The notes beneath the pieces were generated by a model that was not told the DNA's origin, searched no databases, and was given only the letters and a program-made list of their open reading frames with translations. Shown here in pieces: positions 23,473 to 30,377 of a stretch of DNA of 30,377 bases. Position 1 is the first letter of the stretch, and the number at the start of each line of letters is the position of its first letter. Source of the DNA: a virus. Lineage: Duplodnaviria; Heunggongvirae; Uroviricota; Caudoviricetes. The stretch lies in the IMG/VR virus record IMGVR_UViG_2565956721_000001; one strand, written 5' to 3'. The translations under genes were made by a program, and so were the position numbers.

Positions 23473-23897
23473 AGCTGTGTGACGAAGTAACCACTCTTAA
23501 CAGCATAACCAATTTTTTACGTACGTAAACTACTAAATGATATTTGTGAGAATGCCACCGAGTGTTCAAAACACCACCACAAATGCATAAGAAAACTTCA
23601 ACAAATAACCAGTTAATAATTTCCGATGTTATTTTTAGTTTGTTTAAATTAAGCTAAAGAATTATAGAGCACTTATAAATAAGTGCCATTAATATAAATT
23701 AGCTAATAGATTTATTTTTGTTCAGACAAGAGCCATGAATAGGATTAGATAGAAAAGGTTCAGATAAAAATAGAGATCTACTTCACAAATTAAATGAGAA
23801 ACTAAAACTTACATCTTGAAATAATCACATTGATTAGATGAATATTTATCGCGCAGTGACATCATTTTTTAATAATAGTTCAAAAAAAGGGCGTACA

Positions 23898-24980
23898 ATG
23901 AAAAAATTAACAGTGGCAATTTCTGCTGTAGCTGCATCAGTACTGATGGCGATGTCTGCTCAGGCAGCTGAAATTTATAATAAAGACAGTAACAAGCTGG
24001 ATCTATACGGGAAAGTTAATGCCAAGCACTACTTCTCCTCTAATGATGCAGATGATGGTGATACTACTTATGCCCGTCTTGGCTTCAAAGGTGAAACCCA
24101 AATCAACGATCAACTGACTGGTTTCGGTCAGTGGGAATATGAATTCAAAGGCAACCGTGCTGAATCTCAAGGTTCTTCCAAAGACAAAACCCGTCTTGCA
24201 TTTGCAGGCCTGAAATTTGGTGATTACGGCTCAATCGATTACGGCCGTAACTACGGTGTAGCATACGACATCGGTGCGTGGACTGACGTTCTGCCAGAAT
24301 TCGGTGGTGATACCTGGACCCAAACAGATGTGTTCATGACTGGTCGCACTACTGGTGTTGCAACTTATCGTAACAACGACTTCTTTGGTCTGGTCGATGG
24401 CCTGAACTTTGCTGCTCAGTATCAGGGTAAAAATGACCGCACTGACGTAACTGAAGCCAATGGTGATGGTTTCGGTTTCTCCACTACTTATGAGTATGAA
24501 GGATTCGGCGTGGGTGCAACCTATGCTAAATCAGATCGCACTGACGGTCAGGTCGCCTATGGTAAGAGCAAATTCAATGCCTCCGGCAAAAATGCGGAAG
24601 TATGGGCTGCAGGCCTGAAATATGATGCGAACAATATCTATCTGGCTACCACATATTCTGAAACTCAGAATATGACCGTTTTTGGTAATAACCATATTGC
24701 AAACAAAGCACAAAACTTTGAAGCAGTAGCACAATATCAGTTTGACTTCGGTCTGCGTCCATCTGTTGCTTACCTTCAGTCAAAAGGTAAAGACCTTGGT
24801 GTTCATGGTGACCGAGACTTAGTCAAGTATGTCGATGTCGGTGCTACTTACTACTTTAATAAAAACATGTCCACTTTTGTTGATTACAAAATCAACTTAA
24901 TTGACGATAGTAAGTTTACCAAAACAGCTGGTATTGATACCGACGACATCGTCGCTGTAGGTCTGGTTTATCAGTTCTAA
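23898..24980 (+). CDS. nmpC: outer-membrane general porin (NmpC/OmpD family)
   Basis: 360 aa from [23 protein letters not shown] (signal peptide) with AEIYNKD...LVYQF (C-terminal Phe), typical OmpC/OmpF-family beta-barrel; start preceded by AAGGG; AT-rich upstream region. Confidence 0.85.
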
Positions 24981-25778: not shown

Positions 25779-26137
25779 TCATTCCCCATTTCGGTGATGG
25801 TCAGTTCCAGCCTCCCACCTTTGGTAACAGGCATCTTCACAACGCGGTAATCAACGACCTGAGCATCATCCAGCCAGAAACCTGCTTTAGTGAGTGCGTC
25901 AAAAGCGGCTTTTTGCAGATTATCCAGGTCACGGCGACGGCGATCCGGCATGTGGCACTCAATGCGGATTTTCACAGGCATAGCCAGGCCGATATCCAGC
26001 ATTGCGTTTTTAATGATTCGGGCGACGTTATCGCGGTATGCCTGCCCCTCTGCGCTGACGTGCGTGCGCCCGCGATTATGGCGGTAATAGCGATTATTGC
26101 TCGGAGGCCAGGGTAATGTGATGCTGTAGGTATTCAC
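25775..26137 (-). CDS. rusA: Holliday junction resolvase RusA
   Basis: 120 aa [37 protein letters not shown]..., matches recalled E. coli RusA; GTG start. Confidence 0.95.
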
Positions 26138-26262
26138 GCCTTAATAACCCCCTCTTTCAGCCACATAACCTGTGTTCTCGCCATACCTTCCAGCGCGCAT
26201 TCTTTTGCATATGCAGCATCGACTTGCTTGGCATGCCCTTTACCGGCAATCTTCTGTATGCG
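26134..26262 (-). pseudogene. ybcO: C-terminal fragment of a ybcO-like (DUF1364) gene, no start codon
   Basis: Frame reads ...[31 protein letters not shown] then stop, overlapping the rusA GTG (GTGA); an in-frame TAG lies 42 codons upstream. C-terminus matches my recollection of K-12 YbcO; N-terminal two-thirds absent. Confidence 0.5.
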
Positions 26263-26343
26263 CTAAACCTAGATAGAATCCACTCTGTGCACATTGAAGC
26301 CCGCTCTATGCTTTCTTTCAGGTATTGAAGGGATTGAGATGGG

Positions 26344-26691
26344 CTAAGCATTATTGGCCTCCTGCATCAGGAGAAAGACAATCATGGCGGCGCGGAGAGG
26401 TCTGGTATCAAATATTGGGCTTACGCCTTTTGCATCCACACACCATTCAGTTAACTGGTCTAAGATAGAAATCCTGTATTTCTCAATAATCGGCCATGAA
26501 GCGCTCGGATCATTGCAGTAGTCAGGCAAATGATTTAATGGCTCAAAAGTTGTATCAGCATTTCCGTAATACCATTTGTTGGTGTTATTCCCTGATGTTT
26601 CCGGTTTACTTGCCCAAAGGCCTTTAAAAATTATGTCTCCTACCATTCTGTTAATTTCAAAATCACTTAACTGTGAATAATCCATTGTCAT
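26344..26691 (-). CDS. nin-region protein of unknown function (115 aa)
   Basis: From [36 protein letters not shown]...[18 protein letters not shown]; its ATG overlaps the ninE stop (ATGA). The track ORF extends 12 codons upstream. Confidence 0.6.
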
Positions 26692-30172: not shown

Positions 30173-30377
30173 TGAACCGCCCCGGGTTTCCTGGAGAGTG
30201 TTTTATCTGTGAACTCAGGCTGCCAGATCATCGTTTCCGATGGAAGCATAATAAGCTTTTTCTGCTTCTGCCGGAGGAGTATGGCCCAGCCTTTCCAGCA
30301 ATCGTCGATTGTTATACCAGTCCACCCACGTGAGTGTGGCCAGTTCCACTTCTGCACGGTTTTTCCAGCTCTTACGG
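30173..30377 (-). mobile_element. right end of an IS3-family insertion sequence (IS629/IS1203-like); element continues beyond the window
   Basis: Plus strand 30173..30186 is TGAACCGCCCCGGG, recalled as the terminal inverted repeat of IS629-group elements, reading inward; a transposase C-terminus follows on the minus strand. Confidence 0.7.
30215..30377 (-). CDS. IS3-family transposase OrfB (rve/DDE integrase core), C-terminal fragment
   Basis: Hand translation of the minus strand gives ...RKSWKNRAEVELATLTWVDWYNNRRLLERLGHTPPAEAEKAYYASIGNDDLAA then stop; YNxRRxxxxLG..P motif typical of rve transposase C-termini. Different frame from track ORF 30139..30357. Confidence 0.7.
   Translation of the reverse strand, partial: RKSWKNRAEVELATLTWVDWYNNRRLLERLGHTPPAEAEKAYYASIGNDDLAA

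Follow-up and report, generated by a model that had tools for sequence, protein, structure and literature searches.

Probable recombination scar between ninF and ybcO upstream of rusA in a lambda-like prophage

Results

Genes flanking the stretch

The window, by which we mean the whole stretch of 30,377 nucleotides that was analyzed (IMG/VR record IMGVR_UViG_2565956721_000001), represents a lambda-like prophage read backwards, with the genes of the region on the minus strand (Table 1). The same annotated gene order, with 100% identity around the stretch under study, is found in Escherichia coli CFT073 and many strains. The ORF of rusA is intact and matches Pfam family PF05866 over its full length (82 bits against a cut-off of 22.8, E = 7e-23), and the gene is annotated as rusA in CFT073, K-12, and phage 82. 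On the other side of the stretch, the Pfam profile Phage_P22_NinX (PF10765) is matched from position 1 to 114 of 114 with 62 bits against a cut-off of 22.6 (E = 8e-17); the annotation pipeline PGAP names this gene "phage protein NinX family protein", and its DNA is 95% identical to ninX of ST64T. The original prediction, in which an upstream module containing a 115-amino acid unknown gene had replaced the 5' part of ybcO, holds in that the upstream DNA is foreign to ybcO, but the supposed unknown gene is ninX.

Table 1 Features of the ninX-rusA region and its surroundings in the window
Feature	Position	Strand	Evidence
O	29783-28884	minus	
P	28887-28186	minus	
ren	28189-27899	minus	
ninB	27843-27385	minus	
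Phage adenine methyltransferase gene (dam)	about 27448-26861	minus	
ninE	between dam and ninX	minus	
ninX	26691-26344 (PGAP start 26685, 113 aa versus 115 aa)	minus	Pfam, PGAP
64-codon chimeric ORF	26351-26157	minus	ORF list, translation
ninF-derived relic	26351-26224	minus	ST64T and AU6Stx1 alignments
Stretch under study	26343-26134	minus	
Recurrent rearrangement end point GGTA/AAGGG	26244-26236, break 26241/26240	minus	Junctions in other assemblies
ninF'/'ybcO recombination joint	26224-26217	minus	Ends of similarity to ybcO and to the Stx1-phage relic
ybcO 3' remnant, last 29 codons and TGA	26223-26134	minus	Translation, Pfam, 3G27, DNA alignments, PGAP
rusA, Holliday-junction resolvase, 120 codons, GTG start at 26137	26137-25775	minus	ORF, Pfam
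ylcG	25778-25638	minus	
quuD	25552-25169	minus	
OmpC/NmpC-type porin gene	23838-24980	opposite strand	

The C-terminal stub of ybcO

Three-frame translation shows that the frame ending at the TGA of 26136-26134 is open for exactly 42 codons (26262-26137), up to a TAG at 26265-26263, and that no ATG, GTG, or TTG lies between this TAG and the internal Met codons of the ybcO frame. This bears out the prediction of a frame without a start that runs into a stop 42 codons upstream. Only 29 of the codons (VDAAY...IKA, 26223-26137) derive from ybcO, corresponding to YbcO residues 68-96, while the 13 codons ahead of them (RIQKIAGKGHAKQ) are foreign sequence, read out of frame and lacking a stop by chance.

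Residues 13-42 of the stub frame are identical to residues 67-96 of the YbcO structure 3G27 at 29 of 30 positions (E = 7e-13), and the full-length ybcO alleles of K-12, phage 82, and PhiR34_1 share 94-99% DNA identity with the window from 26223 rightward. A match of this kind is, to judge from these values, far beyond chance, and the claim that ybcO has been cut to a C-terminal fragment is upheld by it. The complete domain of about 92 residues is absent; the Pfam profile YbcO/DUF1364 (PF07102) is matched only from position 62 to 92, with 17.7 bits against a cut-off of 29.9. YbcO has a His-Me finger nuclease fold (PMC5714182), and every cysteine and histidine of K-12 YbcO lies within residues 1-66, the region that the stub does not contain. 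As judged from its translation, the stub is devoid of the His-Me finger and of the catalytic and zinc-binding residues of YbcO, and the original protein cannot be made from it. The stub itself is ordinary and already known, as PGAP flags it as a DUF1364 pseudogene "missing N-terminus".

Position of the breakpoint

In alignments with the full-length ybcO-rusA sequences of K-12, phage 82, and PhiR34_1, near-complete identity (about 99%) extends rightward from GTCGATGCTGCATATGC (26223), and no similarity to full-length ybcO is present upstream of 26223 in any of the three frames. This sharp loss of similarity places the breakpoint at 26223/26224, 13 codons downstream of the beginning of the open frame, and agrees with the predicted recombination breakpoint inside ybcO. 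Two findings had been named beforehand as grounds for giving up that reading, namely a fragment not homologous to ybcO and a full-length, in-frame ybcO; the alignments with K-12 and phage 82 show homology, and no full-length ybcO is recoverable.

Similarity to the relic of a Stx1 phage (see below) extends to 26217, while ybcO similarity begins at 26223 (GTCGATG...). The shared (GT)CGATG thus forms a microhomology of 5-7 bp at the joint (26223-26217). We searched a 221-nt query across the joint against 5426 complete E. coli genomes, of which 3506 had a match, and inspected a spread sample of these. Throughout this sample, the match began at query position 78 (window 26223) in genomes with an intact ybcO and at query position 84 where the ybcO allele was slightly different. 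In the search of phage records, the joint was marked by query positions 138 and 144. A scan of the wider region, with totals as in shuffled sequence, gave no promoter-like or terminator-like signal within the joint (26138-26343); the sole nearby promoter-like match (26122-26093) falls within rusA, and such matches are no more numerous than chance would predict. As read from these alignments, the joint lies inside two genes and leaves two fragments as one chimeric ORF.

The ninF-derived relic upstream of the joint

DNA identity with ST64T is 95% from ninE through ninX to 26289, so that 26351-26289 represents ninF of the P22/ST64T type. The relic has an ATG at 26351, preceded at a distance of 6 nt by an AGGAGG ribosome-binding site (26363-26358), and this ATG overlaps the ninX stop by 8 nt (ATGCTTAG), an overlap that is the same in ST64T. 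The spacer of about 80 bp that had been predicted here is indeed foreign, but it is in reality about 120 bp of ninF-derived sequence with its own ribosome-binding site and ATG. Codons 1-22 of the relic share 17 of 22 residues (77%) with ST64T NinF. What the relic retains of NinF is the N-terminal leader and the start overlapping the ninX stop; the zinc-ribbon cysteines have been lost together with the core CxxC...CxxCC.

The origin of the following stretch is less clear-cut. An unannotated relic of the Stx1 phage AU6Stx1 shares 88% identity with positions 26317-26217, and SH2026Stx1 also carries a relic of this type after ninE. In global alignments with shuffled controls, the divergent stretch 26288-26224 scored only z = 0.9-2.9 against the canonical ninF of ST64T and lambda. 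We call it ninF-like; it could represent either a highly diverged allele or DNA of unrelated origin, and in the latter case there would be a further, older joint near 26289. An intact gene of the divergent ninF type was sought in the phage collection with tblastn, which returned only carriers of the joint and the Stx1 relics, and in a search of 5.8 billion proteins, which returned only E. coli variants of the chimeric ORF.

The chimeric ORF and the rusA start

The chimeric ORF consists of NinF codons 1-22, the divergent stretch, and the tail of ybcO read out of frame, and it is the only upstream frame with a start codon. Its TGA (26159-26157) stands immediately in front of the rusA ribosome-binding site GAGGGGG (26154-26148), and 19 nt separate it from the rusA GTG downstream. 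No family was found for the 64-residue product in Pfam and NCBIfam, even at E values up to 10, whereas ST64T NinF, used as a control, matched Pfam NinF (PF05810) with 52 bits over residues 20-44, which hold the CxxC...CxxCC. In the RefSeq records of ev207 and ev099, the chimeric ORF goes under the name "protein ninF". This label is misleading, given that the predicted product is a chimera without the NinF zinc ribbon, and the naming of the ev207-like entries can be corrected on this basis.

The TGA of the stub overlaps the rusA GTG (26137-26135) as GTGA. The surrounding GCGTGAATACC is identical to K-12, as had been claimed for this overlap, and AAGGCGTGAATACC at the rusA start is found unchanged in K-12 and almost unchanged in phage 82. 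As far as the nucleotide sequence tells, the joint preserves the ribosome-binding site and the GTG start of rusA. The prediction that the translational-coupling context of rusA was retained is correct for the GTGA sequence but not for its use: the ybcO frame has no start and is not translatable, so coupling between the ybcO stop and the rusA start cannot work, and the sequence alone has been kept. The chimeric ORF may still deliver ribosomes to the rusA start and thereby aid initiation. Its translation and any coupling to rusA are what we infer from the arrangement of these signals.

Distribution of the joint

The joint region is present at full length in 585 of the 5426 complete E. coli genomes, mostly with 96-100% identity, and its carriers include CFT073, UTI89, Nissle 1917, S88, APEC O1, and ATCC 25922. 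Copies that are 100% identical occur in the independently sequenced CFT073, UTI89, Nissle 1917, and ATCC 25922 and in phage genomes. Moreover, the joint was found in 27 phage records with 97.8-100% identity, including ev207, ev017, 2G7b, mEp332, and the PhiR series, several of which list K-12, C, or ECOR13 as host, as well as in 84 IMG/VR contigs and 24 metagenome contigs. The rusA side of the invariant joint exists in many haplotypes, including alleles of the phage 82 type, indicating that homologous recombination continued in the flanks after the joint had formed. This spread marks the joint as widespread and old.

A recurrent deletion end point near the joint

At least eight different deletions in other, decayed prophages share a right end at 26241/26240, which is 17 bp upstream of the joint. 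They were first seen in the protein search, as N termini of P and Cro fused to the tail of the chimeric ORF, and then in joint-bearing IMG/VR and metagenome contigs. The junction reads ...TTGCCGGTA/AAGGGCATGCC..., with eight different left partners abutting AAGGGCATGCC. These partners include P codon 33 (contigs L009 and L010), P codon 47 (L015), codon 61 of a 434-type cro (L011 and L012), xis (L030), the ral-sieB spacer (L084), and two points in the exo-xis region (L020 and L104). In L014, the point 26241/26240 serves as a left end, and the ybcO stub, rusA, and the 5' part of ylcG have been removed; in L013, an IS100-like end is inserted 3 nt from this deletion hot spot. Deletion variants occur on at least five rusA-side haplotypes, each of which is also seen with an intact relic, and from this spread of haplotypes the deletions are taken as independent events.

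TA forms the end of seven of the eight left partners, and in all seven the next base of the intact partner is C. Reading the junction sequences by eye, we observed that the partner flanks tend toward GCCGGTA. Several other end points were also used more than once: P codon 33 is joined to ninX as well (L029), the xis site is joined to O (L097), one ylcG site was used twice (L014 and P0002), and so was ninX 26416 (L025 and L091). The ten distinct deletions that keep the joint all end within 180 bp upstream of it, and none of the ten ends in ninE, dam, ninB, or ren.

No hairpin was found at the hot spot in a single-strand fold of 121 nt (z = 0.31), and the whole window contains no Chi site. A metagenome scan for non-G variants of the junction (HTAAAGGGC...) gave 0 matches, and a 71-nt BLAST query aimed at such variants in complete genomes returned an overwhelming number of 28-nt matches to full-length ybcO. 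A mobile "rusA cassette" bounded by the TA of the relic and the TA of ylcG was considered and rejected, as the deletion variants are collinear with the window for at least 889 nt rightward. We know of no IS end mimicry, integron-type site, or type IIS-like site that fits all of the junctions. Candidate causes of the hot spot are microhomology-guided joining at a fragile or nicked site and an enzyme with a TA crossover.

Discussion

The stretch between ninX and rusA is very probably the scar of an illegitimate recombination between two types of lambdoid nin region, and as such a fossil rather than a working element. While the anatomy, the homologies, the breakpoint, and the distribution of the joint are established, the order of events that we infer is the following. 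One parent would have been a P22/ST64T-like phage with the order ninB-dam-ninE-ninX-ninF and the other a DLP12/phage-82-like phage with the order ybcN-ninE-ybcO-rusA-ylcG-Q. The two would have been joined inside ninF and inside ybcO at the (GT)CGATG microhomology, the ninF side keeping about 43 codons' worth of sequence (the first 22 of the P22 type and the divergent stretch) and the ybcO side only its last 29 codons. Subsequently, the joint would have spread by ordinary homologous recombination in the flanking genes, both into prophages and into viable temperate phages. Ribosomes that start at the strong ninF site would translate the chimeric ORF and terminate shortly before the rusA start. 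Shuffling of genes in the nin region has been described (PMC4118853).

The alternative in which the chimeric ORF is functional, either as a small protein or as a leader that brings ribosomes to rusA and replaces ybcO as its coupling partner, has several features in its favor but is unlikely. Its AGGAGG is strong and lies 6 nt from the ATG, its start and the ninX stop are coupled in the manner of P22-like phages, and its stop lies directly before the rusA ribosome-binding site. In each of the 85 loci that carry the relic the ORF is open, and one in-frame duplication of 18 nt has been tolerated. The 85 open copies could point to constraint, but diversity is too low for them to mean much. Three of the deletions (P codon 33, P codon 47, and cro codon 61) fuse to it in frame, which is what a protein search selects for. 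Against these points, the product matches no family, each of the nine variable sites seen in the relic part alters the amino acid, third codon positions are not overrepresented among them, and frameshifted, truncated, and IS-interrupted versions turned up in the protein search. In addition, the deletions from non-coding or antisense partners (xis and the ral-sieB spacer) remove its start. Overall, these patterns give no sign of selection on the predicted protein.

A single ancestor carrying ninX-ninF-...-ybcO-rusA in series could also have produced the joint, through an internal ninF-ybcO deletion and with no exchange between two phages. Microhomology-mediated deletions are common in this region of related prophages, which makes such an event conceivable, but the gene orders render it rather improbable. 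In all full-length contexts examined (K-12 DLP12, phage 82, PhiR34_1, 4A7, and Turner), ybcO directly follows ninE with an 8-nt overlap in the order ybcN-ninE-ybcO-rusA, and none of this handful of nin regions has both ninF and a full-length ybcO. P22-like phages have ninX-ninF and then other genes.

We also considered the joint as a by-product of a nuclease cut or nick at GGTA/AAGGG, followed by imprecise repair from a template bearing ybcO, and hold this to be quite doubtful. The eight left partners and one right partner that meet at the exact point, on at least five rusA-side haplotypes shared with intact loci, would be expected of a site-specific break. Likewise, ybcO takes the place after ninE that lambda gives to ninF, and YbcO has the fold of a nuclease. 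However, YbcO is not known to cut DNA, at a specific site or otherwise, and the recurrent end points elsewhere (xis, P codon 33, ylcG, and ninX) suggest a general microhomology process. The CGATG at the joint is also unlike the TA-type junctions, and the site offers neither a hairpin nor a Chi site.

An extended version of this idea is just as doubtful. GGTA/AAGGGCATGCC (26241/26240) would be nicked or cleaved by a sequence-specific activity, for which a YbcO-type His-Me finger nuclease of a co-resident prophage, acting like a homing endonuclease against nin regions without ybcO, is a candidate; the ninF'/'ybcO fusion would then be the fossil of an aborted homing event, and the same break would drive recurrent, one-sided decay of this prophage family. 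With a recurrent break point 17 bp away, it is conceivable that the joint itself owes its origin to a site-specific break instead of a random illegitimate exchange.

Finally, a full-length ybcO disguised by a sequencing or assembly frameshift is practically excluded: frameshifted full-length ybcO alleles do exist elsewhere (P0017, P0018, and P0020), with the shift at a T-run exactly at the position of the joint, but here nothing ybcO-like precedes 26223 in any frame, and identical copies recur in independently sequenced genomes.

The scar of an exchange between two nin regions is thus our preferred reading, and the joint neatly illustrates how lambdoid nin regions are pieced together; as such, it matters little. 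Nevertheless, it has some practical consequences. Complete genomes of lambda-like phages carry the joint, several of them listed with a laboratory host for propagation, and ybcO is therefore dispensable. The joint also provides a natural arrangement with a leader ORF that ends before rusA instead of overlapping it, and this arrangement can be compared with that of K-12 for rusA expression. Of all these features, only the deletion hot spot next to the joint may be worth pursuing. Should it stem from a specific break, it would offer new insight into prophage decay and possibly into the role of YbcO.

Comparison with known systems

The window shares the last 29 ybcO codons, the rusA ribosome-binding site, and the GTGA overlap with the ybcO-rusA pairs of K-12 DLP12 and phage 82 (orf96-rus, X92588), as well as the downstream genes rusA, ylcG, quuD, and the porin gene, with 94-99% DNA identity. 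However, it lacks the first 67 codons of ybcO, the ybcO start, and the overlap with ninE, and its upstream neighbors are ninX and the ninF relic instead of ninE.

With the P22-like phages ST64T and P22, the window has in common the order ninE-ninX-ninF, the 8-nt ATGCTTAG overlap, and 95% DNA identity up to ninF codon 21. From codon 22, the window exchanges the CxxC...CxxCC zinc ribbon of these phages for the divergent sequence and then for ybcO DNA.

The relic of AU6Stx1 and SH2026Stx1 has the same divergent middle stretch as the window, including the motif GGTAAAGG(G/A)CATGCC. Unlike the relic of the window, it lacks a start, contains an in-frame stop, and has a ninF 5' end of the lambda type. 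Moreover, the relic of these phages is cut off by an inserted reverse-strand gene, which is followed by ninG-ninH-Q, whereas that of the window is followed by ybcO-rusA.

Compared with lambdoid mosaic joints in general, the joint of the window differs in lying inside two genes and not at gene boundaries, while it shares with them a sharp transition between modules, a short microhomology, and a later spread by homologous recombination.

Deletion end points near the joint

Examination of related prophages revealed that a single phosphodiester, located 17 bp upstream of the joint (the ninF'/'ybcO recombination scar), forms the end of eight distinct deletions, and a ninth deletion begins at the same GGTA/AAGGG position (the slash marks the phosphodiester). 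As these deletions are spread over several rusA-side haplotypes, they look like independent events. In seven of the eight, the left partner terminates in TA, and the next base in the intact sequence of all seven of these partners is C.

Further end points are reused with different partners in the same prophage family (loci L029, L097, L025, L091, and L014 and protein P0002, in other assemblies). Codon 33 of P (GGTA/C) is joined to the relic, the ninF-derived piece beside the joint, and also to ninX at 26410, while the xis site CCTA/C is joined to the relic and also to the O gene. The ylcG site ATTA/C (about window 25686) and ninX 26416 were each used twice as deletion end points.

Features by window position, with related loci where relevant
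Feature	Window position	Strand	Details
Recurrent deletion end point GGTA/AAGGG	26236-26244	minus	loci L009-L012, L014, L015, L020, L030, L084, L104
IS3-family element, last ~205 nt	30173-30377 (right end of window)		100% identity to CFT073 copy
IS21-family (IS100-like) insertion, locus L013	about 26239		after CCGGTAAA
IS21-family (IS100-like) insertion, protein P0008	about 26207		after CTGCATATG
OmpC/NmpC-type porin gene	23838-24980	+	380 codons, intact, adjoins quuD

Variation in the ninF' and ybcO reading frames

The reading frames that meet at the joint also vary among relatives. The 9-nt unit CAATCCCTT in the 5' part of ninF is present in three tandem copies in locus L071 versus one in the window (equivalent to about 26332-26315), and the two extra copies lengthen the chimeric ORF by six residues without shifting its frame. 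Some full-length ybcO alleles carry a frameshift at a T-run (CATTTTG) that coincides exactly with the position of the joint, and in some joint carriers 1-nt indels return the ninF' ORF to the ybcO frame or to the third frame (both among proteins P0017, P0018, P0020, P0006, and P0007, from other E. coli assemblies).

Variable gene modules

A phage adenine methyltransferase gene (window about 27396 to 26860), located between ninB and ninE, behaves as an optional cassette, because some relatives (loci L053, L069, and L071) lack it and copies of the 12-bp direct repeat AGGGCGGCATGA, one at each of the two gene junctions, flank its deletion or insertion. A second group of joint carriers (loci L014, L016, and L017, from phage Lambda_2E9 and other assemblies) possesses another Q gene, 378 bp long, and the gene after it is the lipocalin gene blc in place of the porin gene; the joint is thus carried along with no fewer than two distinct late-control modules. 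The porin gene is also present in viable joint-carrying phages, such as ev207. Whereas the window's copy is intact, the K-12 DLP12 copy, nmpC, is interrupted by IS5.

Insertion sequences

The IS3-family end in the window (...GGGGCGGTTCA) stops just upstream of cII, and therefore the early right operon of this prophage contains an IS. The CFT073 copy of the element is located between ren and ninB. In two natural isolates, an IS21-family (IS100-like) end, TGTCACGAACGG..., was observed just upstream of rusA. The IS100-like insertions of L013 and P0008 resemble the laboratory rus-1 and rus-2 IS insertions, which reportedly activate rusA in K-12.
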